Source of the DNA: Centroscyllium fabricii
Lineage: Eukaryota
Length of the DNA: 64,000 nucleotides
Direction of reading: 5' to 3'
Assembly: GCA_051313645.2 (NCBI GenBank)
Contig: JBNRSN020000003.1
Span: 331,266,001-331,330,000 of the forward strand
The first letter of the stretch is position 1; each line of letters begins with the position of its first letter. The notes under the pieces were generated by a model. The model was not told the origin of the DNA. It ran no database searches and was given only the letters and a program-made list of their open reading frames with translations. The position numbers were made by a program, and so were the translations under genes. Positions 1,464-40,959 of the stretch are shown in pieces.

Positions 1464-1706
1464 TGACGTATCGTCAAGGTCTTCAATTAAAAGAGTCGAC
1501 GCGTAGTTACCGAAACTAAAGGCTTTTAATTACTAAAGAACGGAGCTACTCTCCAGACGAACTACTGTACAGGAATGGATGGAGCCTCGGTCAGACCACA
1601 CCTATATCGGGGCCTCACCTGGGGGAGGGGTCGGGGGTGTGGCTGACCTGGCTCCCAACAGAGTCACAGTAAACAGGGCTGTGCCTAACATCTGCACAGC
1701 CCATCA

Positions 1707-4560
1707 TTAGCCATGGTGATACAGTGGTATAACTGATATAGAACGGTTACCACATTCACCCCTTCTTAAAAACTTTGAGTCCGGGGGGGGTGAATGGATC
1801 GAACAGTTCATAATTAGTCTGTCCGGCGGTCGTGTCTGCCTGGAGGACCGTCGGCGCTCCGGTGTTGGCGGCGGTGCCTCCTGTGTCAAATGGTCCGCAT
1901 CTGCCGGCGCTGTGACTTCATGTGGCGGTGGGCTCGGCTGGTCCCCGCCGTCCGGGTCGTAGTCGGGGAAACTCGGGGGCCATCTTGCGTCTGGTGGTTG
2001 GTCGACCTGCAGGCCAGCAGGGGGCGCTGTGGTGGTGTTTCCGGCAGGGGCCAGGTCCCTGATGGACACGGTGTCCTCACGCCTGTCCGGGAACTGCACG
2101 AAGGCGTAGTGCGGGTTTGCGTGTAGGAGCTGTACCTTGTCCACCAGGGGGTCCGTCTTGTGGCTCCGGACATGCCTTTTAAGCAAAACCGGCCCCGGAG
2201 TCGTCAGCCATGGAGGGAGAGCTGTCCCCGAAGTCGACCTCCTGTTAAAAAAGAAAATCAGATCGTGCGGGGTGGCGTTAGTAGCAGTACATAACAGGGA
2301 GCGAATAGAGTGCAGCGCATCTGGGAGGACTGTCTGCCAATGGGACACTGGAAGGCCTCTGGACTTAAGAGCCAGGGTGACCGCCTTCCAGATGATCCCA
2401 TTCTCCCTTTCTACCTGGCCGTTCCCCCGGGGGTTATAACTGGTCGTTCTGCTCGTGGCAACCCCTCTCTGGAGCAGAAACTGGCGCAGTTCATCGCTCA
2501 TGAACGATGACCCCCGGTCGCTATGGATGTAGCTGGGGAGACCGAAGATGGCGAACAGCGCGGTGAAGTGTTTGATCACCGTTGCGCTCGTCATGTCTGG
2601 GCAGGGGAAGGCGAAGGGGAAGCGGGAGAACTCATCCACTACCGTGAGGAAGTATGAGTTGCGGTCGGTGGAGGGGAGGGGGCCTTTGAAGTCCACGCTG
2701 AGACGTTCAAAGGGGCGGGTGGCCTTGATGAGGTGCGTCGTGTCTGGCCGGAAAAAGTGGAGTTTGCACTCGGCGCAGACAGGGCACTCTCGGGTCATAG
2801 CCTTGATCTCCGTGATGGAGTAGGGGAGGCTACGGGATTTGACGAAATGGGCGAGTCTGGTGACACCCGGGTGGCAAAGGCGGTCGTGGAGGTCCTTCAG
2901 CCGGTCTAGCTGGGCACTGGCGCATGTTCCCCTGGACAGAGCGTCAGGGGGTTCGTTGAGTTTGCCTGGTCGGTAAAGAATGTCGTACTCGTAAGTCGAG
3001 AGTTCGAACCGCCACCGCAGGATCTTATCATTCTTGATTTTACCCCGTTGTTTATTATTAAACATAAACGCTACCGACCGTTGGTCGGTGAGCAGGGTAA
3101 AACGCTTACCGGCCAGGTAATGACGCCAGTAGCGCACGGCCTCCACGATGGCCTGGGCCTCCTTTTCCACTGCTGAGTGGCGAGTTTCGGGTCCCTGTAG
3201 GGTGCGGGAGAAAAACGCAACGGGCCTGCCTGCCTGATTCAGGGTGGCAGCAAGGGCGATGTCCGAAGCGTCACTCTCCACCTGGAAAGGGATGGATTCA
3301 TCAACAGCGAGCATGGTCGCCTTGATAATATCTTCCTTTATCCTTGCGAATGCCATTTGGGCTTCCACAGAGAGGGGGAAGACAGCAGCCTTGAGGAGTG
3401 GTCTAGCCTTATCTGCGAACTGTGGGACCCATTGTGCATAATAGGAGAAAAATCCTAGACATCTCCTCAAGGCTTTGGGGTTGTGAGGTAGGGGCAGTTC
3501 TTGCAAGGGTCGCATACGCTGTGGGTCGGGGCCGAGGAGCCCGTTCTCCACCACGTATCCGAGGATGGCGAGCCGGGCTGTATTAAAGACACATTTGTCT
3601 TTGTTATACGTGAGGTCCAGCTTAGCCGCCGTGGCGAGAAATTTGGCCAGATTGGCATCGTGGTCCTGCTGGTCGTGGCCGCAGATGGTCACGTTGTCCA
3701 GGTAAGGGAAGGTGGCCTGCAAGTGGTTTTGGTCAACCATACGGTCCATCTCCCGTTGGAACACTGACACTCCGTTGGTCACGCCAAAGGGGACCCGGAG
3801 GAAGTGGTAGAGCCGACCGTTCACCTCGAAGGCGGTGTAGGGGCGGTTGGCTTTCCGAATCGGGAGCTGATGATACACCGATTTAAGGTCGATCGTAGAG
3901 AACACCTTGTACTGGGCGATCTGATTGACCATTTCTGAGATGCGGGGAAGGGGGTAGGCGTCGAGCCCGGTGTAGCGGTTGATAGTCTGGCTGTAATCGA
4001 TAACCAGCCGCTGTTTTTCGCCAGACTTCACCACTGCAACTTGGGCGCGCCAGGGGCTGGTGCTGGCTTCAATTATCCCCTCCTTCAGCATCCGCCCGAC
4101 CTCCGACCTGATAAACGTGCGATCACCCTCACTGTACCGCCGACTCTCAGTGGCAATGGGTTTGCACTTCGGATCGAGGTTGGCGAACAGCGAGGGGGGG
4201 TCGATTTTCAGGGTGGAGAGGCCGCAGGCCGGGCTCCGCTTTGGGAGGAGATTGTCCCGGCTACTGACGGTGAGGGGGGTAAGGTCCCGCCGAACTCCAT
4301 TGTCACACTCCTGAAGTGGCACTGGAAATCCAAACCTAGTAAGGCTGGGGCACACAACTGTTGGAGGGTATACAATTTAAAATTACGGTACACGTGCCCC
4401 TTGACGGTGAGCGTGACGGAGCAGTAGCCGGTGACGTCCGCGGTGTGGGACTGTGAAGCTAGGGAGACTTGGTAGTTGGTGGGCAGGACCTGCAGTCCGC
4501 AGCGCCGCACTGTATCAGGGTGAATGAAACTCTCAGTGCTGCCTGTGTCGAAAAGGCAGT
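1707..4560 (-). CDS. Gypsy B protease-RT-RNaseH-integrase (frameshifted near the protease)
   Basis: CLFDTGSTESF at ~4530-4560; LVIDYSQTIN, YLDNVT, ESDASD, EAQA, TDQRS; HHCC; HSDRGSSF, NGQVER. Confidence 0.92.
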
Positions 4561-4660
4561 CGACAGTATGATCATTAATGCTAATCGGTATTATTGAGTT
4601 AGACAGGGTATGGGGCCTGCCCTGGCTAACTCTGATTCTGGCTGCCGCAGCCCCTGCTGA

Positions 4661-6004
4661 TCAGGGCTGTGCACAAGATGGCGTCGCCCCTGGCTCGCAC
4701 ATGGAGGGGCCCTGGATACAAGATGGCGTCGCCCCTGGCCCGCAGCTGGTGGGGCCCCGTATACAAGATGGCGCCGCCCCTGGCTCGCACATGGAGGGGC
4801 CCTGGATGCAAGATGGCGTCGCCCCTGGCCTGCAGCTGGTGGGGCCCCGTATACAAGATGGCGTCGCCCCTGGATCGCACATGGAGGGGCTCTGGTTGCA
4901 GAATGGCATTTCTGAGGGGACGCACGCGGTGGGGCCCTGTGAACGCGCTGGCGGCACCCGTGATTCGCACGCAGCGAACCGCGGTGATCGGGTTGGCGGT
5001 GCCCGTGATTCGCACGCAGCGAACCGCGGTGGTCGGGTTGGCTGTGCCCGTGATTCGCACGCAGCCGGCCGCGTTGGGGGGTCACGCTTGGCCGGCCTTT
5101 GTTGCATCAGGGTGGGGGATGGGGGCGCTTGTTGTTTACCCCCGTACCTTCGCTGGATCGCGCTGCTAATGCAGCTTACCTGGTCTCTGTCGGTGCTCTC
5201 ACAGGCTGCACTGTTGTACCTTTGGTTAGACGCTGCTGGAGCTGATCTGCAGGCTTTGGCGTAGTGTCCCTTCTTTGCACATTTCTCGCAGGTCGCTGTC
5301 CTGGCTGGGCATTTCGCTCTAGGGTGCAGTCCCTGGCCGCAGAAGTAACAGCGCTTGCTTTTAACGTCTTTAGTGGCCGTCGCGGCCATCGTGGGGGCCT
5401 CGGCCCGTGGCGCCCAGGCCTGGGCCTGTTGTGGCGCGGCCCATATGTTGTAGGCTTGCGGGTTAGTGCCACTGTACGCCTGTAACTTGCTACGGGCCCC
5501 CTCTACCGATTTGGCTAACGTAGTCGCCTCCTCGAGGGATAAATTGTCTCTCTCTAGTAGCCGCTGGCGGGCTTCCACACACCTCAGTCCTGTGACATAA
5601 GCGTCCCGAACGAGGAGTTCTTCCTCCTCTGCAACAGTTGTGCCTTTGCAGCCACAGGCCCGTACCAGGGCCAGGAGCGCTTGCTCAAACTCCTCATTTG
5701 ACTCACCCGGTAGTTGAGGTCTGGTCGCCAGCACATGTCGGGCGTAGACCGAATGGACCAGGCGCACGTAACATTTCTTTAAAATTTGTATAGTCCTTTC
5801 GTAGGTTGAGGCGTTCCTGACGAGGGTGAATACCCTGCTGGAGATCCTTGATCGCAGGACATGCAGCATGTCCTTGTCTGATGTAGCCTCGGCGGCTTCC
5901 ATGTAGGCCTCCAGAAGGCCGAACCAGTGTTCGAAGGTAGCGGGAGCAGCAGGGTCCTGGGGACTGATGTCCAGCTTCTCAGGCTTAACTGTGCTGCTAT
6001 CTAT
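4661..6004 (-). CDS. Gypsy B gag with two CCHC zinc knuckles and a repetitive C-terminal tail
   Basis: CYFCGQGLHPRAKC and CEKCAKKGHYAKAC. The frame extends upstream to an ATA at 6004, probably a mutated ATG. Confidence 0.88.
   Translation of the reverse strand: MDSSTVKPEKLDISPQDPAAPATFEHWFGLLEAYMEAAEATSDKDMLHVLRSRISSRVFTLVRNASTYERTIQILKKCYVRLVHSVYARHVLATRPQLPGESNEEFEQALLALVRACGCKGTTVAEEEELLVRDAYVTGLRCVEARQRLLERDNLSLEEATTLAKSVEGARSKLQAYSGTNPQAYNIWAAPQQAQAWAPRAEAPTMAATATKDVKSKRCYFCGQGLHPRAKCPARTATCEKCAKKGHYAKACRSAPAASNQRYNSAACESTDRDQVSCISSAIQRRYGGKQQAPPSPTLMQQRPAKRDPPTRPAACESRAQPTRPPRFAACESRAPPTRSPRFAACESRVPPARSQGPTACVPSEMPFCNQSPSMCDPGATPSCIRGPTSCRPGATPSCIQGPSMCEPGAAPSCIRGPTSCGPGATPSCIQGPSMCEPGATPSCAQP
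4673..5065. repeat. Two 45-bp tandem repeat blocks in the gag tail (ABABA block at 4673-4897, second block at 4957-5065)
   Basis: Five units start CAAGATGGCG with alternating ends; three units contain CCCGTGATTCGCACGCAGC. Confidence 0.9.
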
Positions 6005-6325
6005 TTTAAAATAATTTAGTAATTAAAATTGACGTATCGTCAAGGTCTTCAATTAAAAGAGTCGACGCGTAGTTACCGAAACTAAAGGCTTTTAATTACT
6101 AAAGAACGGAGCTACTCTCCAGACGAACTACTGTACAGGAATGGATGGAGCCTCGGTCAGACCACACCTATATCGGGGCCTCACCTGGGGGAGGAGTCAG
6201 GGGTGTGGCTGACCTGGCTCCCAACAGAGTCACAGTAAACAGGGCTGTGCCTAACATCTGCACAGCCCATCATTAGCCATGGTGATACAGTGGTATAACT
6301 GATATAGAACAGTTACCACACTGAC

Positions 6326-7583
6326 CGACCCCGATCTGCTCGACCCAGCTACCAACCTCCCCGGCCTGCTCTTGGCCACCGTAGCACACGGGCCCACAGC
6401 CACGGAGGTCCGTTGCGACGTCTCCCTCCCGCAGCCCAGACCCGTCGTCCCCCACGCATGGAGGCGACACATCTTCCAGACCCTCCATGACCTGTCCCAC
6501 CCCGGCGTCCGCGCGTCCACAAAGCTGATCTCTGCGCGTTTCGTTTGGCGCGGCCTGCGCAAGGATGTCCGCGCCTGGACCAACACCTGCAATGCCTGCC
6601 AGCGCGCCAAGGTGCACAAGCACATCAAGGCGCCACTTGAAACGATCGCCATCCCAGCTAGACGCTTCAGCCACGTCCATATTGACTTGGTCGGACCACT
6701 ATCACCATCACGGGGACATACACATGTCATGACCATGGTCGACCGCAGCACCCGCTGGCCAGAAGCGGTCCCCCTCACCGCTACCACCACCGCGGACCTG
6801 GCCAGGGCCTTCATTGCCACCTGGGTCGCACGTTTCGGCGTCCCCGACATCACGTCAGACAGGGGCCCCCAATTTACCTCAACCCTATGGGCAACCATCG
6901 CCCATGACCTCGGGGCAACCCTGCACCGAACCACCGCCTACCACCCACAGGCCAATGGCCTCTGCGAGAGGTTCCACCGCTCCATCAAAGCTTCCCTGCG
7001 GGCCAGCCTTAAGGACGCGACCTGGACCGACTGCCTGCCCTGGGTAATGCTCGGCCTGCGTTCAGCGGCCAAAGAAGACCTGCACGCCTCAGCGGCGGAA
7101 CTCGTCTATGGCCAACCCCTAACCATACCGGGCGAGTTCATCGCGGACACCAACGAACCCTGGTCAGCCGACCGCTGCCTCAAGGAGTTCAATAACCAGG
7201 CAGCGGCGTTCAAACCACTTCCGGTGGCCCGGCACGGAGAGCCGGCTGCACGTGTTCCAGATGGCATCGAGAATGCCAAGTATGTGTTTGTCCGCCACGA
7301 CGCACATCGAACACCACTACAGCCACCGTACGACGGACCGTACAGAGTGCTTCGGGCGGGACCTAAAACGTTCCAGATAAAAATGGGCAACAGAGCTGAG
7401 ACTGTCTCAATCGACCGGCTCAAACCGGCACACGTAATGGCGGGCGAGACAACAGTCCCCGCGCAGTCACCAAAACGCGGACGCCCTACCGCACCAAAAC
7501 CCGCCCACACTCCCACGCAGAACAAGGAGCAGCGCACAACACATGCTGGCCGCATCATCAGGCCACCTCAACGCCTCGCCTGA
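6326..7583 (+). CDS. Gypsy A pol, integrase portion
   Basis: H-H-C-C motif (HDLSHPG...CNAC), DLVGPL, SDRGPQF, NGLCER, YDGPY. Confidence 0.92.
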
Positions 7584-14580: not shown

Positions 14581-15602
14581 GAAACGTGACGTCAGTGGCT
14601 TCTCATTCGTCTGCGGCCTTTTGCTGCACGCTTGTAAATCAGTGTGACAATGGGGGTGGCACCACCGCTCCTGTTTCTCACTGATTGGCTGCTTCCACGG
14701 CCACCTCTACAGATTAACACTGTGTGCGGTCGGAAATTGATTGAGGGATACAAAATGGGTGGCCGCTGGTTGCGTTGAACAGGTAGTCATTCTGTACAGG
14801 GCTTACAATATGGTATTTCTCTCGGGGGGAATCCGATGTGGCTGCTATGAACAGGTGGCCATTCTGTAGAGGTGGCCACTGTTGTATCTATGCTGCAATA
14901 CATTCAATCAAGCATGTAGATACATCGCATTAAATCACAGTTCAGTCAGACAGGTTTAAATTCACTGTTCACTTTATTCCCTAAGATGGCTTCTGCCTCA
15001 TGGCTTCTGCTGGTAGTTCCCACAATGCCATGCACATTACATACCGTAATACCTAGTGTAAACTCACATCTTATATTACCGTATTACCTGGTGTAAACGC
15101 ACAATCAATACACGACATCCCCCTTTTCCTTGGAAGCAAACTTTTAGTTTACAAACAGTTTCTTACAATAACACTGTACAACTTGTTTGGTTTATAAACC
15201 TTTTGCAAACTTGTGTCTTATCACACAACTATATAATTCCATATTTACACTGTACATTTAACATCCCCCATGCAGTTCTCGCAGTTTATGTTGTGACATA
15301 ATCAGACAACCTTTGGGGTTTTCTTTTAATCCTTTGAAGTCTGGCTGTATTGGGTATGTCTGACATGTTGTTGTCCGTGGGTATTGCCTGTGTCACAGTG
15401 GTATGTGTCTCAGAGTCTACTATACTGTCCTCAGTCCCTTGTGTTTCCTCCTGCTCATGGAGTGTCTCCTTTGGTCCATCGGTTCTGTATTTCTTCACAA
15501 ACGTAGTGTTTCTTGAGTAGCGCGCTCCGTCTGAAGATTCTACTACTACTTGACTCCGTTTTCCTCAAAACTGTGAGGTGTGGCATTAGAAGGAGTGGTG
15601 TA

Positions 15603-16285
15603 CTTGTCCCTTTGAAGATTTGAGACAATAGATTTGTAAAGGTTTGATCTGGGGTTGATCTTCATAATTTGTAGGAGATCTCTTGCCATAAATACCTCAT
15701 TTTGTAGCTGTTGTTCCAGTATCTGTTTATGGCTTTGATATTCATCCTCGTCAAGCTTTCTGGAACATTCTGCTTTCTTCAATTCCGCTTGAAGAGCTCA
15801 ATGAGCAGTGGTGGGTTGGTTTAGTATTTCACACAATTTATGATTTTCACAACGAGCTTCATCAAGCTGTTTCCTCAGCCCCTTGATCTCAGCATGAAGT
15901 TGTACATTTTCTTCCACCAATTCATGCCAATGTTCCTGCTATTTCTGAAGTCTCTCAATAGCATTCTTCTCTCGTGTGATCAACATTTCAGACTTCATCT
16001 GATGCATTTTATCTAACTTCCTTCTGACCTCTTTGATATCCTTGTGCGACCGCTCTTGCTCCTGAATCCGGACCTTAGCCAATTCCAGATCCTTAAAATG
16101 CTGTAGCTCTTGCTGCATCTCTGCCTGAAGCTGTTCTTCTATTTGTTTGTGATATACAAGCAGTTTTGTTTCCCAAAAGTCCTCTTGCACATTTGCTGGA
16201 TGAAGTGCTGCATATTCTTCATCAACCACATGAAGTTTATCAACAATAGATTCCTTGCACTGTGGAAGCAGCTGGTCTAAGTTTC
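15603..16285 (-). pseudogene. OFD1: Intronless, rearranged OFD1 cDNA fragment inside Gypsy C
   Basis: Translates to ET*TS..ESIVDKLHVVDEEY..QIEEQLQAEMQQELQHFKDLELAKVRI..REKNAIERLQK*QE, then ..LRKQLDEARCEN..QAELKKAE..LEQQLQNE, then VFMARDLLQIMKINPRSNLYKSI. These match recalled human OFD1 segments [41 protein letters not shown] and [23 protein letters not shown]. Three stops and one frameshift. Confidence 0.88.
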
Positions 16286-17393
16286 TACCACCGCTGAGAC
16301 ATCTGCGCCTATTTTTAAAACTCCCAGTTTCATGGCTGTCTCCCTTCCTAGCAATGGTTCTCCAGGGGCTTTGACCACAATGAACTCTGCCTGCTCAGTT
16401 CTCTTACCTATTGTAATCCCACATGTGAATATACCTTTAACTGACAGTGGTCGGCTCGAAGCATAAGAGCATAACTTTCTCTCTGTCTTAGGGACATGTG
16501 ACTGACCCTTAATGTGTTCTGACTTTAATTTTTCCCAGGTATTCTCATCTATTACATAATTGGTTGCACCTGAATCAATTAAAATTCTCAGGTTTACTCC
16601 TCCACACAAAAGGTAAGTCTGTCTGTCATGTTATTTCCAGTAACAGTAAATGCAAGTCATTTTGTTCCACTACATTGTTCACACTGTGTTTCTTTGCATC
16701 CTTTGTGTGGCACATTTTGGAGAAATGATCCTTTCCCTTGCACTTATGATACATTTGTCTGCGTGCTGGGCATTTCGGATCTCTGCCCATGTGGTCTGTG
16801 TGTCCACATATGTAGCATTTCCTTTCGTTGCAATCGCCATTTCCCTTTGGGTTCTCTGACGAGCTTTTTGCCTGATACCCTCTTTTCCCTGTAACACGAT
16901 GAACAGTATCTGTCTCCGCCATCTCTGTACATGACATGGCTGACATCTGCTCAATGTTTTCACATTGTGAGGCCAGTTGTAACATGTGGGCGAGTGTTAG
17001 ATCTTGCCCTTCCTCTAGCAATTTACTCCACACATCGGCTGACATGCACCTACCCAGGATAGCGTCTCTTATTTGATTATCCGCATCCCCCCCAAAAGCA
17101 CAGTCCCTCGCAGCCTGCCGCAAGCGAGTGGCAAATTGTTGCACAGTCTCACCTGTCTTCTGAGACAACTTGTAAAAAGTCTGTCTAGCAAATGCTGCGT
17201 TGACCTGGGGCACGAAGTGGAGATTTAACCGCCGCCGCATAGTCTGCTGGCTCTCCCGTGTCTGGTAGAGTCGAAAAGATATCCTGGACATCTCGTCCTG
17301 CTAAGTGTAGGAGTAAAGCTCTTCTTCTCTGCTTTTCAGCATCTGTAGAGGTATTGTCGATAATGAGTCCTTTGCCATTGGCATAAAGCTCAA

Positions 17394-20300
17394 TTGGAAA
17401 ACACCAGATTGAAAAAGAAAATGGCAGCGCGCACGATCGCAGTGGCTTTGTCTCTCCCGAGACAATTTCTTCACTTCTTCATCTGCATCCTAATCATCTT
17501 AGGTCTGCTCTCTAGGAAAACGAGAGCAGACCTCCGCTACAGCAGGCAAGCCCTTCTCGATATCGGGGCTGGCTGTGGAGCACTTTCACTGGGAGATCGC
17601 GTTCTCGATCTCCCAGCTGAAATTAACAAGGCAGCAGCGGCAGCGTGGAGCCCAGCGGGGGGCCGTCAGAGGCACAGAAGGGAAAGCAGGCAGAAGAGAG
17701 GTAAGAGAGCAGGGGCCCTCAGCAGGCTGATGAGGGCCCCTCTCAAACCCTCTCTGCCCAGCATCTACCTGGCCAATGTCAGGTCCCTAGGGAGTAAAAT
17801 TGGTGAAATTAAACTTGGCCTCTCCACACAGACCAGGATCAAGGAATGCTGCGCCATAATCTTTACAGAGACCTGGCTGAACGACGGCATTCCTGACTCC
17901 GCCATCCAGCTGGCGGGTCACACGGTCTTCCGCGCCGACAGAACCGCCGACTCCGGTAAGAGCAAGGGAGGCGGCCTGTGCATCTACACGAACAACGCCT
18001 GGGGCACGAACGCGGAACTGATTGAAAGTTCCTGCTCCGCCGATCTGGAATTCCTCACTGTAAAGTGCAGACCCTTCTACCTGCCTCGGGAATTTACAGC
18101 CGTCATCTTCACTGCGGTATACATCCCTCCACACGCAAATGCCAAACTGGCACTCAAAGATCTCCACAGGGTCATCAGCGAGCAGCAGACTGCGCATCCG
18201 GAGGGAGCCTTTATCGTGGCGGGGGACTTCAACCACGCTAACCTCAAATCGGTGCTACCAAAATTTCACAAGAATGTCTCCTGCCCCACGAGGGGCGAGA
18301 ACACGCTGGACCAGGTCTACACCAACATTGCAGAGGCTTACAAAGCCATCCCGTGCCCCCACCTCGGGAATTCCGACCACCTTTCACTGTTCCTCGCCCT
18401 AGCATACAAACCACTCATCAAAAGGGTGAAAGCTCCAGCCAAAACAGTCAGAGTATGGCCAGAAGGGGCAGTCTCAGAGCTACAAGACTGCTTCGAACGC
18501 ACTGAATGGAGCATGTTCACTCACACGGACATTGAGGAATACGCATCCACAGTGCTTTTTTACATCAACAGCTGTGTCGAGGTGGTCACTACCCAAAAAA
18601 CAATCAAGACATTCCCCAACCAGAAACCCTGGATGAACGGGGAGGTCCGCTCGCTGCTGAAGGTACGTGACACAGCTTTCAAATCTGGGGATGTGGCGGC
18701 TTACAGCACAGCCAGGGCCAACCTAAAGAGGGGTATCAGGTCTGCCAAACAAAATCAGACACTGAAGATAGAGGAACACTTTCACAACAACTCGGACCCT
18801 CGACGTATGTGGCAAGGCATACAGTCCATCACGGACTACAAGTGCAGAAACACCAGCCCCCCGACCGGCGATGCCTCCCTACCAGAGGAACTCAACAACT
18901 TCTACGCTCGCTTCGACAGGGACAACAGGGAGCCAGCCACCAAAGTCCTGCAATCCCCGGAAGACCAGCCATTAACACTGTCCTGCTCCAACGTAAGAGG
19001 TGCTCTGCGTAGAGTGAACGCACGGAAGGCCGCGGGTCCTGATGGCATCCCCGGCCGGGCACTCAAAGAATGTGCCGACCAACTGGCTGAAGTCTTCACT
19101 TGCATCTTCAACCTGTCACTGGCGAAGGCAGCTGTCCCTACCTGCTTCAAGACCGCCACCATCATCCCTGTGCCCAAGAAAACGGCCGTGACGTGCCTGA
19201 ACGACTACCGCCCTGTCGCACTTACACCCATTATCATGAAGTGTTTCGAGCGGCTGGTCCTGGCCACATCAAAGCCAGCATCCCTGCCGCCCTGGACCAA
19301 TACCAGTTTGCCTACCGTGGGAACAGATCTACAGAAGATGCTATCACTACGGCTCTTCACTCTGCACTAAACCACCTGGATAGCAAAGATACGTATGTCA
19401 GAATGCTGTTTATTGACTACAGCTCAGCATTCAACACCATCGTCTCCAGCAAATTGTCTAACAAACTCCTCACCCTCGGCCTGAACACCTCCCTCTGCAA
19501 CTGGACCCTGGACTTCCTAACCAACAGACCACAGTCTGTGAAGTTAGGCAACCTCACCTCCCCCCCCTTACCCTGAACACGGGGGCCCCACAAGGTTGTG
19601 TGCTGAGCCCCCTCCTCTACTCCCTCTTCACTCACGACTGTGCGGCTGTCCATGGCTCCAACACGATCATCAAGTTTGCGGATGACAACACGGTAGTTGG
19701 CCAGATCACCAACAACGACGAGTCAGCCTACAGGGATGAGATCCAGCGCCTTGTGGGTTGGTGTGCCAACAACAACCTGGCACTGAACACCAAGAAATCT
19801 AAGGAGATCATAGTGGACTTCCGGAGGACTGGAAGCAGAAGACACACCCCCATCTTCATCCAAGGCGCTGAGGTGGAAAGGGTGTCCAGCTTCAAGTTCC
19901 TCGGGGTCCACATCTCGGAAGATCTCTCCTGGTCACTAAACACCTCCTCTCTGGTTAAGAAGGCCCAACAGCGCCTGTACTTCCTAAGGAAGCTGAAGAA
20001 AGCCAGGCTGTCATCCGGCATCCTCTCCAACTTCTACCTCTGCACAATAGAAAGCATACTGACAAGCTGCATCACAGTCTGGTATGGAAATTGCACTATC
20101 TCGGACCGGAAAACCCTGCAGCGGGTAGTCAAAACTGCCCAACGAATCACCGGTACCCAGCTACCGTCAATGGAAAGCATCTACCTCAAATGCTGCTTAC
20201 GGAGGTCTCTGAACATTATTAAAGACCCCACACACCCCAGCCACAGTCTGTTCGCCCCCCTGCCCTCCGGGAGACGCTACAGATCAATTCGCACCCGCAC

Positions 20301-20515
20301 GACTAGATTTCTGAACAGTTTCTTCCCCAGGGCTGTCAGCCTCCTGAACTCTAAAAATAAACTCCGGTACCTGCACGCCTGATAATGTACTTTACTGTAT
20401 GCAATTTGCATGTAATTTATTTGCACTACTCTCGGGAGAGTCGAGTCTTTGTCTCGTTGTATTGTACTAGTACTCTGCAGTGACAATAAAACTTGAATTG
20501 AATTGAATTGAATTG
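17394..20515 (+). mobile_element. Near full-length Rex1/Babar-clade LINE inserted in the gag of Gypsy C
   Basis: APE endonuclease (LANVRSL, FTETWL, CRPFYLPREF, GDFN, SDH) and RT ([32 protein letters not shown]). Two frameshifts (~19265, ~19565); AATAAA followed by a (TTGAA)n tail. Removing it restores gag WFTSFELYA. Confidence 0.92.
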
Positions 20516-21787
20516 AAGACGTGAACCACCTCGTCCATCTCGGACCCAATGTGGCTGGCTCGGCAAAACATGCAAAATTTTGAATGCCGGTCTCCTCCAT
20601 CCTAACTAACTAAAACTTGGGCACCTACCTATCTAAAATGATTCCGTTTATTTTCCTCGTCGCCAATGTTGTATCTATGCTTCAATATATTCAATCAAGC
20701 ATGTAGATACATCGAATTAAATCAAATCCAGTCAGAGAGGCTTTAACTCAGTGTGTTCACTTTTATTCCCTAAGATGGCTTCTGCCTCATGGCTTCTGCT
20801 GGTGGTTCCCACAATGCCATGCACATTACATACCGTAATACCTAGTGTAGACTCACATCTTATATTACCGTATTACCTGGTGTAAACACGCAATCAATAC
20901 ACGACAGCCGCTAACACAGGTTTGACTGTAATTGGATTTGGAGCATAAGACTGTTGGCCAAAGTACCCATTTCTAATTACTTGGAAGAAACAAAGCTGGA
21001 GTTGGGAACAGAAGTGAAAAGTGACAATGCAAGGATATTCTCACATGGACAATCCATAGAAACTGCAGGGAAACATTGCATTTCACAGTTTAGTGCCTCA
21101 AACTAACGGTTTGTCATTCAACTAAGCATCACCAAGGAAATAAATTTGCATTAAATTGTCTAAATTGTCAGACTGCTTGTCTGACAGCCAGTACTGGATG
21201 AGCAGAAATTTCCTCCAACTAAATATTGGGAAGACCGAAGCTGTTGGCTGGAATTTTGTGTGGTCGTTGCAGGTGCGATTGGAGGCAGGTCGGGTGGGAA
21301 ATTTGAAAAAGGTTGGAGCAGGTCGGAAGCCCGCCATCTTCTCGCCCTCACGCGATTTCCCTTGGGCAAGTTCGCCAGTGCGGCAGCGACCCGACCGGCA
21401 AAGGCGGGCAAGCTAATTCAAATCATGAACAGGTAGTTGTCAGACCCTTAGGAGCCTTTTTCAGCCGACCTTTGAATTTCCCTGGCTGCCCATGGGATTT
21501 ATGCAGCTTGGGAATCACATCTGTCAACCTTAAGTGGGAGTTGAGTGGTCTTTGATCCAGCTGATTAGTTGCCAGCATGAAATGTATTATAAAACCTCCC
21601 ACCTCACAGCTGATCACTTTCCTCGGGCAGATGCTGCTGGCTGCATTCCCAGCACTTTTAGTTTTCTACAGGCCACAAATGCTTCCAGCAAAGTCGCCAT
21701 CTAGTCTCACCTCATTGTTACAACCTATCACTCCACTGACAGCTTGCTCCTCTGATCTCTACTTAACCTGCCATCTATTCCATAAGC

Positions 21788-22912
21788 ATGGGTGCTGTTT
21801 ATACCATGTCGCCTTGGTCCTCAGAATCAGACCATGATCAGCTCGAACAACAGCAGCACCAGGCACACTGGCAGCACCAACACCACCAACCTTCTCCCCA
21901 ACCATCTGATGCTGCACAGGACAGAGGGCATCAGCACAGGGCTGCATCGCACCAGGGGCAATACCGCCAACACAGGGTTTACAGGCAGAGGATGAGCTTC
22001 CTCGACATGACTGAGCAGCAATGCCAAAGGAGGCTCAGACTATTGTGCCAGTTCATCGCAGACATTTGCACATTGCTGGAGCAAGACCTGCAGCCCAGAG
22101 GAGCTGGTGGACATGCCTTACCAGTGGCTATCAAAGTCGCCAGCGCCCTCAACTTCTTCGCCTCAGGCTCCTTCCAGGGATCTGCAGCAGACATTTGTGA
22201 CATCTCACAGTCGGCCGGCCACAGATGCATCACCCATGTCACCGATGGCCTCTTTGACAAGTCAACCAATTATATCAACTTTGCCACTGATGAAGCCAGT
22301 GTTACTGAGCGGGTGCTCAGCTTTGCCACTCTGGCTGACTTCCCACGGGTGCAGGGCGTCATCGACTGCACACATGTGGCCATCAGGGCACCCCATAATA
22401 ACCCAGGAGTCTTTGTCAAGCACAAGGGCTTCTACACCCTCAACGTGCAGCTGGTCTCCAACCATAGGTAGATCATCATGCATATGTGTGCCAAATTCCC
22501 AGGCAGCTGTCATGACTCTTTCGGCCTTTGCCAGTCCACCCTCCCTCAGCTCTTTGCTCCTCCAAACAGACTTTCCGGCTGGCTGCTTGGAGGCAAAGTC
22601 TATCTACTGAAGATGTGGCCAAGTACTCAGACCCAGGAGAGATACAGTAAAAGTCACATTTCCACCAGATGTGTCATAGAGCAGACAACAGGCATGCTCA
22701 AAATGCGCTTCAGATGCCTTGAGAGATCTGGAAGAGCCCTTCAGTATGCACCAGCCAGAGTCTCAAGACTCATCGTGATCTACTGCACCCTGCACAACAT
22801 AACGCAGCAGCGAGGATTAGCGCTGCATGAGGAGCAAGGCACTGAGTGCACAGCCTCTTCAGAGGAGAAGGAGCAGGAGGAGGAGGAGGAGCATCAACTA
22901 GAGGACGAGTAG
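21788..22912 (+). pseudogene. Harbinger DDE transposase (HARBI1-like family), interrupted
   Basis: [49 protein letters not shown]. In-frame stop at 22469-22471 and a degenerate GDKGY motif. Confidence 0.88.
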
Positions 22913-30023: not shown

Positions 30024-33000
30024 TGTAGTGATATGCAGTAGCATGTCATTCTAGAATTGTCCACCAGGTGTAGCTACATGTGAAATAGTGAGCTGCAGCT
30101 ATAGAGCTTCTCTTGTTAACTCTACTTACTTCTTAACATGGAGACTATTCAACATGGCTGTATAGTGCTGTAAATAAATGACTAGCTTAAAGCTAGTTGT
30201 TCATAATAAATATGTCTAAACATTAATGAACATAACATGGTACCTAGAAGTGGTAATATCGAGTGAATATTGCAAAAGTGGTAATATCTAGTAAGATCTG
30301 CTGCAAATTGTGAAACACGACATGAAGACTTTAAGCCGCCGGAGAGTTTGAAGCTCACGGGGAATGTTCATTGCAATTGGCAGACTTTCAAACAACAATT
30401 CGAACTCTACATTGCTGCCATCAGACTAGATACGAAGCCAGATGCAAGGAAAATAGCATTGCTGCTCACGGTTGCAGGCCCGCAGGCGATAGAGGTATTT
30501 AATATGTTTGTATTTGATCATGAGCAGGACAAAGGCAAAATGGACGACATGCTAAAGAAGTTTTATGCACATTGTTCTCCCAAAAAGAACGAGACCTATG
30601 AGAGGTACGTGTTCCGTTCACGGACTCTGAAGCAAAATGAAACTTTTGATAGCTTTGTGACCGATCTGAAACTGGAAGCACAGACTTGTAATTTCTCGGA
30701 GCTGAAATCATCCATGATTTGTGACCAGATTGTGATGGTATTCGTGATAAAAAGGTCAGGGATTGTCTGTTACGAGAAACCGAACTAACATTGGAGGATG
30801 CTGTGAAAGTATGAGCTAGCTCATCAGCATGCAAATACTTTCAGTGAAATAAATAATGGTTCAACTTTAGTGAGTGACAGTGCTATCGGTGCTGTATCCT
30901 GCAAGGGGAAGAAAAGGATACAGAACAGGAATGCAAAGCAATCGGAGGATGGAACTTTCAATTGTAAACGATGTGATTACAAGCACGAGCCAAGAAAATG
31001 TCCAGCGTTTGGGAAAATGTGCACAAAATGTAATGGAAAGAATCACTTTGCCAAACAATGCTTCTCAAAAGTAAAAACAAAGAAAGGGCAACAAGTCAAT
31101 GTAATTGAGGACACTGATTTAAGTGAGACATTTTTTGTAGGAATGGTGTCTTCTGACAATACAGAAAACAATACAGAAAATGTGCAGGCCTCAGGAAAGG
31201 ACAATTCTGAACATACAGTTAATGCAGTAAAAGAGGACAAATGGATGATCCCACTGCAGGTAAATGGAGCATTAGTGACATTGAAACTAGATACTGGGGC
31301 AAAAGCAAACTTAATCAGTATGAGTGACATTAAAAATATGAAGGAAAAGCCCAAAATACAGGAAAAGTCAGTACTACTGAAGAACTATAATGGACAGAAA
31401 ATAGATAGCTTAGGTGTATGCAGACTTAATGTGACAGTCAAAGACAAATCTCATGTTTTCTGTTGTGGCTGAAGGACTTGATTCACTACTAGATGACAAA
31501 GCTTGTGAGGACTTAGAACTGATCAAGAGAGTCTACCGTATAAACTGTGCCATGAGCAGACCAGATGACTCAGTGGATTCTGTAGTAAGTAATTTCCAGG
31601 ATGTGTTCAAAGGATTTGGAGTTCTACCATTCACTTACAAGATCCAGCTAAAGGAGGATGCTCAGCCAGTGGTACATGCTCCAGGGAGAGTTCCAGCACC
31701 CCTGCGTGACCGGCTCAAGAAAGAACTGGACAGAATGACCACACTAGGAGTCATCAGGAAAGTCAAAGAGCCAACAGACTGGGTCAACTCCATGGTATGT
31801 GTAAAGAAAAAGAACAACAATCTAAGAATATGCATGGATCCGAAGGACTTAAATGCAAACATAAAACATGAACACTACCAGATTCCCAAGCGAGAAGAAA
31901 TCACCAGTGAAATGTCAGGTGCCAGATACTTCACAAAGCTCGATGCCTCACAGGGATTTTGGCAACTAAAACTGGATGAATAGAGCATCAAATACTCTAC
32001 CTTCAACACACCATTTGGCATGTATTGTTTCCTCAGAACGCCTTTCGGGATAATATCTGCATCTGAAATCTTCCATAGAGCGATGGAACACATAATTGAA
32101 GGTCTGGAAGGAGTTCGGGTCTATGTTGATGACATCATCATCTGCGGCTCAACACTGAAAGAACACAATGAAAGACTGACTAAAGTGCTACAGAGCATAC
32201 GCCGGAATGGGCTGAAGCTCAACAAAGCCAAGTGTCAGTTGGCGTCCAGGAAGTCACTTTCCTAGGAGATAATCTATCTGGTAAAGGAATAGAGCCAGAT
32301 ATGGAAAAAGTAAACGCCATACTGACCCACTGACAAAAAAAAAGAGTACCACGTCTCATGCGGAAGATAAACTTCATTGGAAAGTTAATTCCTAACTTGT
32401 CAGCCAAGATAGCCTGTCTGCGAGACCTGCAACACAAGACAAATGAGTTCGCATGGACAGAAAAACATGAACAAGAGTGAATGAACCTCAAAACAGCGCT
32501 GACAACCACACTTGTACTCAACCTCTTTGACCCAACAAATTGAATAATGGTGTCAACGGATGCATCAAAAGATGGCTCAGGCATGGTCTTGCTACAAGCA
32601 GAGGGTGAAGACTGGAAGCCTGTTGCCTTTGCCTCCAGGTCTATGACTGAGTGTCGATACGCTCAGGTTGAAAAGGAATGTCTAGGCTAGGTAGTTGGAC
32701 TAGAAAAGTTCCATGGCTACATATATGGACTTCCCACCTTCACAGTTGAGACAGACCACCGCCCACTAGTTGCCATCGTAAAAAAAAACTGAATGAGATG
32801 TCTCCAAGGATTCAACGACTCATGATGAAGCTGCAAAGATGACTTTGAACTGATCTACACACCAGGCAAACACGTAGTGTTAGCAGATGCACTATCCCGA
32901 GCACCCACAGTGAGTCATGTGAGCGCTACTGAAGAAGATGTGGATGTTCATGTGAGTATGGTCACTGCTGCACTGCCCATGTCAGACACAAAATCAAAGC

Positions 33001-35304
33001 AAATAGCAGATGAAACAGTAAAAGATACAGTATTACAAACAGTGATAGAGAGCATTCATTATGGTTGGCCAAAAGGTTCCTGTCCAAAGTACTATCACAT
33101 AAGGTCAGAGTTGAGTGTCACAAATGGACTATTACTAAGACAGAACAGAATAGTCATTCCACAGGCTCTACATCGAGACATGTTCAAAAGGATTCATTGG
33201 CCTGGCATAAATAAGGACACTGAGAACATGATAGGCAAATGTGAGACATGTCAGGAACACCAAAACAAACAAGCAAAGGAACCAATGACAGTAGCTGACT
33301 TACCAACAGCACCATGGCAAAAGGTTGGTATGGACCTGTTTCATTTGAATGGTAAAGAATATCTATTAGTGATTGACTACTATTCTAACTATCCTGAGAT
33401 GGTGCTGCTCTCAAGCACTTCAGCAAGCAGTGTCATAATACATGTCAAATCCATCTTCGCCAGACATGGCATTCCCAGGATTGCCGTTCGCGACAATGGT
33501 CGATGCTTCAACTGTAAGCTGTGGCAACAGTTTGCAGCACACTATGACTTTCAGCACATCACATCCAGTCCTCTGTATGCTCAGTCGAATGTTAAGGCAG
33601 AGAAAGGTGTTCAAATTCTCAAACAGCTACTGAAGAAAGCAACAGAAAGCAAGTCTGATCCTTATCTTGCCCTGCTGAGCTACCGAGCCTCCCCTTTGGA
33701 CTGTGGTTCTTCACCTGCTGAACTCCTAATGGGTCGCAAGTTGTGCACCACGCTACCCTGCTGTGCAAAAGAAAAGCAGAGTAAGGAACTGAGACAGAGA
33801 CTTCAACTGTTAAACCTGAAACAGAAATCACAGTGACAAGTCATCCAAAACTATGAAACCACTGACAAGGGATGATGTTGTCAGGATTGAGGATCCAAAT
33901 GCATGGAACAGGAAAGCTACAGTTCTTGAGGAAGTAGGACCAAGGTCATACACTGTTAGAACTGAGGAAGGACAGATTCTCATGAGAAATTGCCGTTCCC
34001 TCCTGAAACATTCCAACAGCAAATCGATGACGATGCCGCAACTGAATCTTGTCAATCACCACCAGAAAAATCTAACACAAACACACATACAGGCTCTCAT
34101 GCAAACACATCAGACTTACGTGTGCCGAGAAGACCCACACATGAAGTAAAAAAGCCTGATATAGTTTTCTTTGTACTCAAAGATTAAGTCTAACAAAAGA
34201 ATGAAAAGCTTAGAGTTTACAAAGTAAAGCTTTGAAGATGTGTTGACTGTTGTGAAGATGTAAAAAAAAATGTTTACTGACAAATGTGCTACTGATATCA
34301 TCTTTATCATTTTTCTTGAAAGTTGATTGATATTGGGCCAGAAATTCCAGTCTGCCCATATCGGGTTGCAGCCAGTTGCGCTGCTTCAGGTTTTCCTATG
34401 CCGGCCAGCAGGGGGCTTGGAGTTCCTGCGAAGGCCAGCGCAGGAACCAGCGAAGTACGGGTTGCGTTCAGTAATTCAGTTTAAAAAAAAAAACTTTTTC
34501 TACGGACCAAGACCAGGAGATTCTACGCTGGGAAAAAGCAGTCGTAAGTATCCGTTTTTATCTGGTAAGTGTGTATTTTATTGATTTTAATTGTTGTTTT
34601 TTCAGGTTTTTAATTGTTGATAACTTTAAAGACAGCCAAGTATTTTTTTAGACTTGTTGGAAGTTGAAAAAAAATTCTGTTAAATTTTATTTTTTCTTTA
34701 AAATAGGTTATTTGTGTTAGTTGGGGTAATGTTAAAAAATGTGGTGTTTTAAAATTTTTATTTTTGAGTTTAGATGTCTTTTGGGCAATCTCTCCTTTCA
34801 AAACTTGCACAGATTTCTCAGTGGAAGTTTTGAACGGAGAATTGGTTCCACTGATTGGCTCCCTGCCAATCAGGTGGTCTCAAAAGCCATCTCGCACTAA
34901 TTACGCCCTTCAGATGCCCATGAAGCTCGCACGGAGCTGACAAGCTGGTCCAACAGGAATTACTGAGTGCAAAAAAGCAAACCGGATTATGGGCAGTGCA
35001 AGTGCAACTAGCAGGTACTGCACCCGCACGAAGGCTCCACTGCAATTTCTGGGCCATTGATTTTGTTTAACCTCAAAGGAAGGGGGATGTAGTGATAAGC
35101 AGTAGCATGTCATTCTATAATTGTCCATCAGGTGTAGCTGCATGTGGAATTTTAAGCTGTAGCTATAGAGCTTCTCTTGTTAACTCTACTTACTTCTTCT
35201 TAACATGGAGACTATTTAACATGGCTGTATAGTGCAGTAAATAAATGACTAGTTTAAAACTAGCTGTTCATAATAAATATGTCTAAACATTAATGAACAT
35301 AACA
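30024..35304 (+). mobile_element. Full-length, decayed Gypsy LTR retrotransposon D (Mag/SURL-like)
   Basis: LTRs at 30024-30237 and 35088-35304; flanking CTTCAT duplication; PBS TGGTACCTAGAAGTGG; PPT AAAGGAAGGGGGA. gag knuckles, KLDTGA, CMDPKDLN, YVDDII, TDHRPL, IDYYSN are present, with many stops and frameshifts. Confidence 0.93.
34335..35055. mobile_element. Harbinger-type MITE in the 3' UTR of Gypsy D
   Basis: TIRs GGGCCAGAAATT and AATTTCTGGGCC; 3-bp TSD ATT. Confidence 0.85.
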
Positions 35305-35994: not shown

Positions 35995-36154
35995 GTACGT
36001 TAACCAGTCAGTTTGTGCTCCGTGTGGGGCTCAATCTGGGCCGTGACACCGAACCAGTGAGCGGCCCGAGGCTGAACAGCGCCGTAACCCCGACACCGTC
36101 CCCACATCCCCCTCCCCCACCACGGGCATCTCCTACCCCCCACCAGCATCGCCC

Positions 36155-39100
36155 TCCCGACATCCCCCCCCCCCCCCCCCGACATCCCCCACCCCGACAT
36201 CCCCCACCCCGACATCCCCCCCACTCCGACATCCCCCCCCACCCCGACATCCCCCCCACTCCGACATCCCCCCCCACCCCGACATCCCCCACCCCGACAT
36301 CCCCCACCCCGACATCCCCCCCACCCCCGACATCCCCCACCCCCGACATCTCCCCCACCCCCGACATCCCCCCCCACCCCGACATCCCCCCCACCCCCGA
36401 CATCCCCCCCCACCCCCGACATCCCCCCCACCCCGACATCCCCCCACCCCGACATCCCCCACCCCCGACATCCCCCACTCCGAGACATCCCCCACTCCGA
36501 CATCCCCCCACCCCGACATCCCCCACCCCCGACATCCTCCACCCCCGACATCCCCCCACCCCGACATCCCCCACCCCCGACATCCCCCACCCCCGACATC
36601 CCCCACTCCGACATCCCCCCACCCCGACATCCCCCCCACCCCGACATCCCCCCCACCCCGACATCCCCCCACCCCGACATCCCCCACCCCCGACATCCCC
36701 CACCCCCGACATCCCCTCACCCCGACATCCTCCCCACCCCGACATCCCCCACCCCCGACATCCCCCACCCCCGACATCCCCCACCCCCGACATCCCCCCC
36801 ACCCCGACATCCCCCCCACCCCGACATCCCCCCCACCCCGACATCCCCTCACCCCGACATCCCCCCCACCCCGACATACCCCACCCCCGACATCCCCTCA
36901 CCCCGACATCCCCCACCCCCGACATCCCCTCACCCCGACATCCCCTCACCCCGACATCCCCCCCACCCCGACATCCCCCCCACCCCGACATCCCCCACCC
37001 CCGACATCCCCCACCCCCGACATCCCCCACCCCCGACATCCCCCACCCCCGACATCCCCCACCCCCGACATCCCCCACCCCCGACATCCCCTCACCCCGA
37101 CATCCCCCTCACCCCGACATCCCCCCCACCCCGACATCCCCCCCACCCCGACATCCCCCCCACCCCGACATCCCCCCACCCCGACATCCCCCCACCCCGA
37201 CATCCCCCCACCCCGACATCTCCCCCACCCCGACATCCCCCCCACCCCGACATCCCCCCCGCCCCGACATCCCCCTCGGCCCGACATCGCCCCCCGCCCC
37301 GACATCCCCTCACCCTGACATCCCCCCGCCCCGACATCCCCCCCACCCCGACATCCCCCCCACCCCGACATCACCCCCACCCCGACATCACCCCCACCCC
37401 GACATCACCCCCACCCCGACATCCCCCCCACCCCGACATCCCCACCCCGACATCCCCCACCCCCGACATCCCCTCACCCCGACATCCCCCCCACCCCGAC
37501 ATCCCCCACCCCCGACATCCCCCACCCCCGACATCCCCTCACCCCGACATCACCCCCACCCCGACATCTCCCCCACCCCGACATCTCCCCCACCCCGACA
37601 TTCCCCCACCCCGACATTCCCCCACCCCGACATCCCCCCCACCCCGACATCCCCCCCGCCCCGACATCACCCTCGGCCCGACATCGCCCCCCGCCCCGAC
37701 ATCCCCTCACCCTGACATCCCCCCGCCCCGACATCGCCCCCACCCCAACATCCCCCCCCACCCCGACATCCCCCCCACCCCGACATCCCCCCCACCCCGA
37801 CATCCCCCCACCCCGACATCCCCCCCACCCCGACATCCCCCCCACCCCGACATCCCCCCACCCCGACATCACCCCCGCCCCGACATCCCCCCGCCCCGAC
37901 ATCCCCCCCGCCCCGACATCCCCCCCGCCCCGACATCCCCCCACCCCGACATCCCCCCACCCCGACATCCCCCCACCCCGACATCACCCCCGCCCCGACA
38001 TCCACCCGCCCCGACATCCCCCCGCCCCGACATCCCCCCGCCCCGACATCCCCCCGCCCCGACATCCCCCCGCCCCGACATCCCCCCCGCCCCGACATCC
38101 CCCCACCCCGACATCCCCCCGCCCCGACATCACCCCCACCCCGACATCCCCCCCACCCCGACATCCCCCGCCCCGACATCCCCCCCGCCCCGACATCCCC
38201 CCCGCCCCGACATCCCCCCCGCCCCGACATCCCCCCCGCACCGACATCCCCCCCGCCCCGACATCCCCCCCGCCCCGACATCCCCCCCGCCCCGACATCC
38301 CCCCCGCCCCGACATCCCCCCCGCCCCGACATCCCCCCCGCCCCGACATCACCCCCGCCCCGACATCCCCCCCGCCCCGACATCCCCCCCGCCCCGACAT
38401 CCCCCCCGCCCCGACATCGCCCCCGCCCCGACATCCCCCCCGCCCCGACATCCCCCCGCCCCGACATCCCCCCGCCCCGACATCCCCCCGGCCCGACATT
38501 GCCCCCCGGCCCGACATTGCCCCCCGGCCCGACATTGCCCCCCGCCCCGACATCCCCCCGGCCCGACATTGCCCCCCGGCCCGACATTGCCCCCCGGCCC
38601 GACATTGCCCCCCGCCCCGACATCCCCCCGGCCCGACATTGCCCCCCGGCCCGACATTGCCCCCCGGCCCGACATCGCCCCCCGGCCCGACATCGCCCCC
38701 CGCCCCGACATCGCCCCCCGCCCCGACATCGCCCCCCGCCCCGACATCGCCCCCCGCACCGACTTCCCCCCCCCACCCCGACATCCCCACCACCTTGACA
38801 TCCCCCCAGCCCCGACGTCCCCACCGCCTCGACGTCCCCACCGCCCCGACGTCCCCACCGCCCCGACGTCCCCACCGCCCCGACGTCCCCCCCGCCCCGA
38901 CCGCCCCGACGTCGCCCCCCGCCCCGACGTCGCCCCCCGCCCCGACGTCGCCCGACGTCGCTCCCCGCCCCGACGTCGCCCCCCGCCCCGACGTCGCCCC
39001 CCGCCCCGACGTCTCCCCCCCCGACGTCGCCCCCCGCCCCGGGGCCCCCGACGTCGCCCCCCGCCCCGACGTCGCTCCCCGCCCCGACGTCGCCCCCCGC

Positions 39101-40140
39101 CCAGACGTCGCCCCCCGCCCCGACGTCGCCCCCCGCCCCGACGTCGCCCCCCGCCCCGACGTCGCCCCCCGCCCCGACGTCGCCCCCCGCCCCGACGTCG
39201 CCCCCCGCCCCGACGTCGCCCCCCGCCCCGACGTCGCCCCCCGCCCCGACGTCGCGCCCCCGCCCCGACGTCGCCCCCCGCCCCGACGTCGCCCCCCGCC
39301 CCGACGTCGCCCCCCGCCCCGACGTCGCCCCCCGCCCCGACGTCGCCCCCCGCCCCGACGTCGCCCCCCGCCCCGACGTCGCCCCCCGCCCCGACGTCGC
39401 CCCCCGCCCCGACGTCGCCCCCCGCCCCGACGTCGCCCCCCGCCCCGACGTCGCCCCCCGTCCCGACGTCGCCCCCCGCCCCGACGTCGCCCCCCGCCCC
39501 GACGTCGCCAACCGCCCCGACGTCGCCAACCGCCCCGACGTCGCCCCCCGACGTCGCCCCCCGCCCCCGACGTCGCCCCCCGCCCCGACGTCGCCCCCCG
39601 CCCCGACGTCGCCCCCCGCCCCGACGTCGCCCCCCGCCCCGACGTCGCCCCCCGCCCCGACGTCGCCCCCCGCCCCGACGTCGCCCCCCGCCCCGACGTC
39701 GCCCCCCGCCCCGACGTCGCCCCCCGCCCCGACGTCGCCCCCCGCCCCGACGTCGCCCCCCGCCCCGACGTCGCCCCCCGCCCCGACGTCCCCCCCCGCC
39801 CCGACGTCCCCCCCCGCCCCGACGTCCCCCCCACCCCCGACGTCCCCCCCACCCCGACGTCCCCCCCACCCCGACATCCCCCCCACCCCGACATCCACCC
39901 CCACCCCGACATCCCCCCCACCCCGACATCCCCCCCACCCCCGACATCCCCCCCACCCCCGACATCCCCCCCACCCCGACATCCCCCCCACCCCGACATC
40001 CCCCCCACCCCGACATCCCCCCCACCCCGACATCCCCCCCTCCCCGACATCCCCCCTCTCCGGCATCCCCCCCACCCCCGACATCCCCCCCACCCCCGAC
40101 ATCCCCCCCACCCCCGACATCCCCCCCACCCCGACATCAT
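36155..40140. repeat. ~4 kb C-rich minisatellite (15-18 bp units, core CCCCGACATC / CCCCGACGTC) in IFT74 intron 1
   Basis: Continuous tandem units with position-dependent variants and extreme C/G strand skew. Confidence 0.95.
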
Positions 40141-40959
40141 TCCCCTTCCTCAACACCCCAGCTCCCGACATCACTCCCTTTTTGTTGTCATTCCAACCCC
40201 CACACATCTCCCACCTCTCCATCTGCCCCCCCTTCCCGCCATACCTCTCCCTCCTCCCCACTCCCCAACATCTTGACATTCCCGACAACAAATACAAATC
40301 ATAATGTTTGGCGATCCAAAGCCAATGCTATATTTTTTCAAAAATTAACTTCCAAGTATTAAAGTTTTTTGCTGATTTCAGTATACCTCCAGTTTACACT
40401 GTAAATTGACCCCATTCGTATATCCTATTTATACCTCCAGTCTATTTATACTTTTCCTGATATTTATGTTATATATTTAGCGCTGCTTTGAGAAATCATA
40501 CAAACCCCAAGCCAATGTCCTGAAGCCAAGATAAACTCACAGTGTTGCTTAAATTTGTTTTCAGAACTCATCAGTTTGTGGCTTTCAGATATTTCATGCT
40601 AATCTCAGATTAGTATAAACAATGGAAGGTTTGAAATCACAACTTCCCAACATTTTTTCTGTGTTTTCACACTGATATCTGACATCATCTGCAGTTTATT
40701 GACCATCTTTATTATTGACAAATATCTGAGCAGTTGTTTGATGTATAACTAACTGTCTTTCCCTTTCCATTCACAGACTGTGCTGTTCACCATTGTTGTA
40801 TGAGGTCATTTTCTTATCTTTCAATGACAATTCTTACTTGTTTTAGTAGAATTAGTTTCTATTTAAAACGTGTTACATTATCATCAGTGGAACGCGTGAC
40901 TGACCTGTTCCAAGTTGGTGTTAAATCAGTCACAGAGGTGTGTCGGCAGTGAGCAGCGT

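Follow-up and report, generated by a model that had tools for sequence, protein, structure and literature searches.

The window analyzed here, a 64,000-nt stretch of DNA from Centroscyllium fabricii (contig JBNRSN020000003.1, positions 331,266,001 to 331,330,000), contains at positions 14875-20911, on the minus strand, a defunct member of a non-autonomous Gypsy family with many copies, in which spliced host exons stand in place of the pol core. Both LTRs are TG..CA repeats on the minus strand (5′ LTR, 20667-20906; 3′ LTR, 14880-15117) that differ by a K2P of 0.065. They are flanked by a 5-bp target-site duplication (TSD) with one mismatch, GCCAC on the left (14875-14879) and GCCGC on the right (20907-20911), a 4/5 match; 5-bp TSDs were also found at sister copies. 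Reading along the minus strand, the primer binding site (PBS, 20654-20665) matches the 3′ end of a tRNA-Ser(GCT) of the same genome, and it is followed by the start of gag (20516-20600), the main part of gag with its zinc knuckles (16626-17393), an aspartic protease (16286-16630), the host-derived insert, the integrase C-terminal tail with the native stop of the element (15286-15604) and a polypurine tract (PPT, 15118-15133). Gag is frameshifted in this copy, and the Pfam matches of gag and protease are weak, falling below the cut-off. RT, RNase H and the integrase core are absent between the LTRs, and the tail, whose identical sequence terminates pol in full-length copies, has a broken frame. 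In these respects, our results uphold a preliminary description of the locus as a non-autonomous Gypsy derivative that kept its LTRs, PBS, PPT, TSD, gag and protease while host cDNA replaced its pol core. Of the 6-kb span, 3.1 kb is a later LINE insertion (17394-20515, plus strand), absent from that account. The LINE lies antisense inside gag, is nearly full length, encodes an endonuclease and RT with one frameshift, ends in an AATTG tail and is presumably of the Rex1/Babar type. Sister copies have no LINE at this position, and in them the gag start is contiguous with the rest of gag. LINE pieces 95% similar to this one were also seen in two sister loci, L035 and L045.

Other repeats are present in the window. 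A second LTR element at 1464-6326, with 297-nt repeats that are 98% alike and minus-strand ORFs of 889 and 453 aa, is apparently nested in older pol-like sequence at 1-1503 and 6303-7580. Direct repeats of 109 nt lie 5 kb apart at 30129-35304 with a pol-like ORF at 32829-33833, a 4.3-kb C-rich minisatellite with 16- to 18-nt units occupies 36000-40350, and an ORF at 21767-22471 encodes what we take to be a Harbinger-type transposase.

We then compared the 680-nt insert with the host OFD1 gene (C335:27.81-27.68 Mb); the nearest relatives are shark OFD1 proteins. Here, we letter the relevant host exons A to K (69, 31, 108, 137, 174, 107, 120, 74, 92, 190 and 131 nt); in size they resemble human exons 4-14. 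Together, A-K make up 1,233 nt, or 411 codons, without a stop. The preliminary description had placed about 680 bp of OFD1 between protease and tail, and spliced OFD1, 93-95% identical to the host gene, is indeed there, but as three non-colinear blocks (A-K positions 166-518, 1017-1233 and 1-92) together with 48 nt of a second gene. On the minus strand, the order is the 3′ part of exon C with exons D and E (15934-16285), the remnant of a second host gene that resembles PMFBP1 (15892-15939), the 3′ part of exon J with exon K (15696-15912), and exon A with the start of exon B (15604-15695). The blocks show AG/GT borders at the host exons, the remnant overlaps its OFD1 flanks by microhomologies of 6 and 21 nt, and GGACAA is common to the insert and the parent element at the tail junction. 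The join of K to A (15695-15696) runs exactly from splice donor to splice acceptor, as in a back-splice. A Pfam profile search gave no name for the cargo. The insert has a stop at 16277-16279, a frame shift a few codons later and two further stops. Inspection of its flanks revealed no poly(A) and no target duplication, which the earlier account had named as signs of a later LINE-mediated insertion.

With the insert as a query, 1,046 candidates were obtained in the 7.2-Gb genome; all 40 that were scored match at 94-100%, one of them being the window itself, and in 29 of the 29 other loci fetched the protease, insert and tail follow in the window's order. Genome-wide counts of exact 18-mers, which are lower bounds, gave 255 for the back-splice join (control, 2), 484 for a cargo motif (control, 1) and 137 for an RNase H motif (control, 0), so that chimeras outnumber RNase H-bearing copies by about 3.5 to 1 (484 versus 137 motifs). 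Among the first 100 cargo-motif matches listed, 21 carry the window's letter. The chimeric family has at least 255 copies and probably about 1,000. TSDs were scored in 26 rows with two near-full LTRs, two pairs of which are duplicates: 10 matched at 5/5, 5 at 4/5 and 6 at no more than 3 positions, and the other 5 gave no call. Many loci with the same junctions and different TSDs were thus found, as had been predicted for a chimera that was itself amplified. Two pairs of near-identical loci with the same TSD or flanks (L087 and L088 on C1411; L005 and L017 on C113) reflect segmental duplication, not transposition.

The autonomous parent that had been predicted is also present. Locus L140 is full length, with Asp_protease, RVT_1, RT_RNaseH, Integrase_H2C2 and rve domains in Ty3/Gypsy order; RNase H and integrase domains were likewise detected in L134, and among 20 RT matches fetched, several have about 1.6 kb between RT and the chimera's tail. 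The parent family has TG..CA LTRs, a tRNA PBS, a PPT and short TSDs. UniRef labels its nearest protein matches Gypsy. A 434-aa stretch of the parent pol (L140:3553-4857) shows 86% identity to a Gypsy protein from the eel Synaphobranchus kaupii, and a horizontal transfer between teleost and cartilaginous fish is possible from this likeness.

The least-deleted chimeras define the shape of the original insert. In loci L166 and L167, RT and the start of RNase H are followed by C(3′)-D-E-F-G-H-I-J-K-A-B-C(5′) and then by the tail. This full-lap form with its RNase H junction is known from two loci, and its 3′ end from four, since L169 and L170 share it. The insert starts at 168 and ends at 158 of the 1,233-nt block, leaving the lap 9 nt short; by our own arithmetic, a gap of at most 9 nt in 1,233 is expected in about 1% of cases by chance. 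Exact homology at the two primary capture junctions amounts to only 1-2 nt, with an imperfect match of about 7/9 on the 5′ side, and the insert in copies of this type lacks both a poly(A) tract and a TSD. Exon G, which is missing from the window, detected the host gene and nine other loci, while exon L and the exon before A gave no match in any mapped element copy. At the back-splice join, 4 nt (AG|GT) are common to both linear splice junctions; only 2 of the 3,173 shared runs of 4 or more nt inside A-K fall on two exon borders. Since the borders are exact and the lap closes to within 9 nt, a circular OFD1 template appears much the simplest reading of the insert, the circle itself being deduced from DNA. 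Contigs from four runs of other organisms show only the linear splice at host exon K; since assembled contigs drop rare forms, this speaks neither for nor against the circle. The primary capture took place inside RNase H and likely took in one lap of a back-spliced, 1,233-nt OFD1 circle. The pair of template switches invoked in the preliminary description, if set on OFD1 mRNA in linear form, is not supported as the origin of this structure; a second gene was also involved.

Long copies carry about 700 nt of extra cargo from this second gene, with best protein matches to a Callorhinchus EEA1-like protein (52%) and, weakly, to Xenopus PMFBP1 (26%); we tentatively call it PMFBP1-like. Its captured exons lie in the host at C667:50.54-50.62 Mb, and eight of them are spliced in the elements, with one skipped. 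They form a phase-0 block of 1,158 nt, captured from its first base to 4 nt before its end. A pattern search for the exon border of this gene gave no match. The first 200 kb examined of the host stretch held no captured exons, which lie further along. The host gene spans at least 850 kb (G000:C667:49.77-50.62 Mb), with a 184-kb intron directly before the first captured exon. In a sister lineage, gag, protease and RT are fused to PMFBP1-like cDNA without OFD1. Its 5′ join connects the first base of a host exon to the parent's best donor-like site, which, scored with a matrix built from 19 host donors, ranks first among 296 GT sites in one parent copy and among 259 in another. A join at the first base of the exon and at the parent's top donor-like site suggests that the second gene was likely captured by read-through and splicing. 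Retroviral transduction of cellular genes involves read-through splicing and one template switch; the PMFBP1-like capture resembles it in joining a viral donor-like site to a host acceptor and in its 3′ microhomology, but env is lacking, the cargo protein bears no mark of selection, and the scanned introns yielded no source insertion. In the 600 kb of host-gene stretches scanned for a parent remnant in the introns of both genes, the only matches were to a short repeat inside L140.

The order of the later events was inferred from nested content. Part of the PMFBP1-like cDNA replaced OFD1 exons F-H at microhomologies of 6 and 10 nt, and a deletion at an 8-nt match (about 16/18) removed most of this cDNA to give the window form; such microhomologies, of 6-10 nt, recur at the later joins. 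The protease join of the window arose by later loss of RT, through deletions in which short repeats at the ends of protease and RT and at the RNase H join took part. At the tail join, more of the tail is retained than in the earliest form, so an extra crossover with parent RNA was needed. Because they were formed by recombination and microhomology deletions, both junctions that the preliminary description noted in the window are secondary. A gag-protease tree of 57 copies is star-like, does not order the events and has a bootstrap that had not settled. Among other rearranged copies, L121 retains no more than about 50 nt of the PMFBP1-like cDNA, which leads back into integrase sequence, and L162 (1117-2069) has OFD1 exons D-J between inverted LTR fragments, without gag or pol.

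We further investigated whether the junctions preserve the reading frame. The frame census covered 95 loci, with L097, the host exon locus and four duplicates excluded and one near-identical pair retained. Fourteen of the 16 recurrent junction types are in frame, including all 13 located at least 100 codons upstream of the native stop. The two types that break the frame are last junctions, close to that stop, and one further last junction, read by eye, is also out of frame. The protease junction is in frame in 53 of 54 loci, the tail junction in 43 of 43 and the back-splice join in 41 of 42, whereas the earliest 3′ junction is in frame in 0 of 4 loci and that of the sister lineage in 0 of 7. 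An in-frame fusion of protease to OFD1 had been proposed for the window, and it stands; the host OFD1 motif used to support it does not, since it reads AEAQTS, not ETQTS. In-frame joins are expected from microhomology alone in 35-67% of cases. For the 11 in-frame types not made by splicing, the joint null is 1.9e-4, or 0.012 if every null is set to 0.67. Loci L031-L050 were chosen because their frames are long, a source of sampling bias, but the loci chosen by DNA similarity include examples of all 13 types. Junctions seen at a single locus are in frame in 1 of 8 cases in frame-blind samples and in 10 of 19 overall. Natural copies contain open frames of 733 and 739 codons, in keeping with an in-frame fusion.

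Stops are rarer among shared variants (5/299) than among private ones (78/1,718; p 0.018). Nonsynonymous and synonymous changes in the cargo, however, are equally distributed (shared, 59/17; private, 573/177; p 0.89, at low power), so a role for the coiled coil itself finds no support. Constraint on gag and protease was itself borderline (p 0.05), which makes this a weak test of selection. Purifying selection on the fusion protein did not emerge from these comparisons, and the window copy is broken. Together, the frame data seem to fit best with selection on translation and not on the cargo protein.

We consider it quite probable that the whole explanation is as follows, with the chimera first arising when RT went once round a circular OFD1 RNA that had been packaged alongside the element. 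In the particle, minus-strand synthesis would have left the element's integrase tail and entered the circle in exon C, run round through the back-splice, come to the end of the template at a nick in the circle or where RNase H had followed behind, and returned to the element in RNase H. Splicing would have joined the strongest donor-like site of a parent copy to a PMFBP1-like exon, a single template switch making the 3′ junction, and both chimeras and the parent would have recombined in mixed particles. Variants whose reading frame ran unbroken from the start of Gag almost to the 3′ LTR would have spread best, owing to a need for translation in cis or to escape from nonsense-mediated decay, with the parent's enzymes supplied in trans. 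It is very improbable that OFD1 was instead captured from a linear mRNA with an extra backward template switch: the 4 nt common to both splice junctions make a switch there not impossible, and multiple switches are frequent in this element family and in print (PMC5131818), but two coincidences would be needed, a landing on both exon borders and an entry and exit 9 nt apart, and neither exon L nor the exon before A was seen in any mapped copy. A linear RNA with repeated exons, produced by trans-splicing or from an ancient tandem duplication of A-K, would yield the exact K-A junction without a circle; it seems decidedly unlikely, as it leaves the stop 9 nt before one full unit unexplained and the host OFD1 exons are present in one copy each in the 200 kb scanned.

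One might also suppose that the circle was captured as proposed and that the fused coiled coils were useful to the element, for example by directing particles within the male germ line. The products of both captured genes are coiled-coil proteins, OFD1 is centriolar by name and PMFBP1 is, we assume, a sperm-neck protein; the frame is kept, and the chimeras are in numerical excess over RNase H-bearing copies. We nevertheless regard usefulness of the cargo as unlikely, given its equal N/S in shared and private variants, its shrinkage from about 1.6 kb to 0.7 kb through many different deletions, and a protease site that could presumably release it anyway. Similarly doubtful is a bolder version, in which the element fed twice on stop-free, in-frame circRNAs of the male germ line and Gag-coiled-coil fusions steered the particles until the chimera outnumbered its helper. 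We attach next to no weight to a LINE-made processed pseudogene that entered a Gypsy copy and was followed by deletion. LINEs are active passengers in the window element, but the insert has neither poly(A) nor TSD, lies in sense and in frame, shares junction microhomology with the parent, and replaced pol without interrupting it; LINE-mediated insertion was rejected on the junctions of L166 and L167. The one-lap capture from a circle remains our preferred reading.

The LTR pairs of the sampled copies have a median K2P of 0.066 (range, 0.022-0.107), and terminal branches of the star-like tree have a median of 0.042. No young copy was found among the sampled copies, which on a rate that we assume are tens of millions of years old. 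When run X23 (organism H) was placed on the window, the summed depth was in the thousands on the protease and tail and 0-25 on the cargo, a pattern that is that of the parent without the chimera. Run X1 (organism A, tentatively taken as RNA) gave one 141-nt contig that passes from protease to OFD1, in a deletion variant also found in the C. fabricii genome, and this single contig hints that the chimera family predates a species split. Run X6 showed host mRNA only, in linear order, and X19 may stem from the specimen that was assembled. No fused Gag-OFD1 protein was present among 55 protein matches of 406-1,294 aa.

LTR-mediated capture and circRNA pseudogenes are each known. The main text of Tan et al. 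2016 (PMC5131818) describes LTR-mediated retroposition in animals, in which host cDNA replaces internal ORFs between LTRs, with microsimilarity at switch points and multi-gene chimeras that lie in sense, are often in frame and are re-retroposed as non-autonomous elements. The C. fabricii family shares all these features; intronless host exons replace its ORFs with microsimilarity and without poly(A) or TSD. It differs in its back-spliced template, its hundreds of copies and its surviving intermediates; that main text nowhere uses the words circular, Rfwd2 or scrambl-, and it puts Bs1 at 1-5 copies. Dong et al. 2016 (PMC4897178) report 33 high-confidence pseudogenes derived from mouse circRFWD2 next to MMERVK10C LTR-element sequence, and call the mechanism mysterious. 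Shared with these are the back-spliced exon order in many genomic copies and the lack of poly(A); in C. fabricii, the non-colinear junction lies exactly at a splice donor and acceptor, and only the exons of the circle are seen. The main text of that paper gives no complete vector, capture junctions or one-lap geometry, though its supplements might differ, whereas the C. fabricii family resolves all three, in a Gypsy element of a cartilaginous fish and with an in-frame fusion. For selection on translation, a review (PMC6466679) offers a printed parallel in mouse IAP 1Δ1, a non-autonomous, in-frame gag-pol deletion that is said to act in cis and out-transposes its helper; it has no host cargo, and its cis function was tested, whereas ours is inferred. 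In the literature searched, which included few subscription journals, we found no paper that combines LTR capture with circRNA pseudogenes or names this family, and none on circOFD1; nor did we find a printed case in which a one-lap capture is documented, at such a scale, through all its intermediates.

The C. fabricii family would thus be a fossil record of the reverse transcription of a circRNA into genomes, a question left open in the main text of PMC4897178. The record holds a complete LTR vector, both capture junctions, the lap-minus-9-nt length and the later recombination steps, and it would date a specific circRNA to the distant past. It predicts that one-lap geometry may be found in other LTR-flanked circRNA pseudogenes. 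We note that a back-splice junction present in hundreds of copies in the C. fabricii genome would there give rise to spurious circRNA calls and spurious OFD1 paralogues. With copies in such numbers, one could also test whether selection on non-autonomous LTR elements favors an unbroken frame whatever its product.
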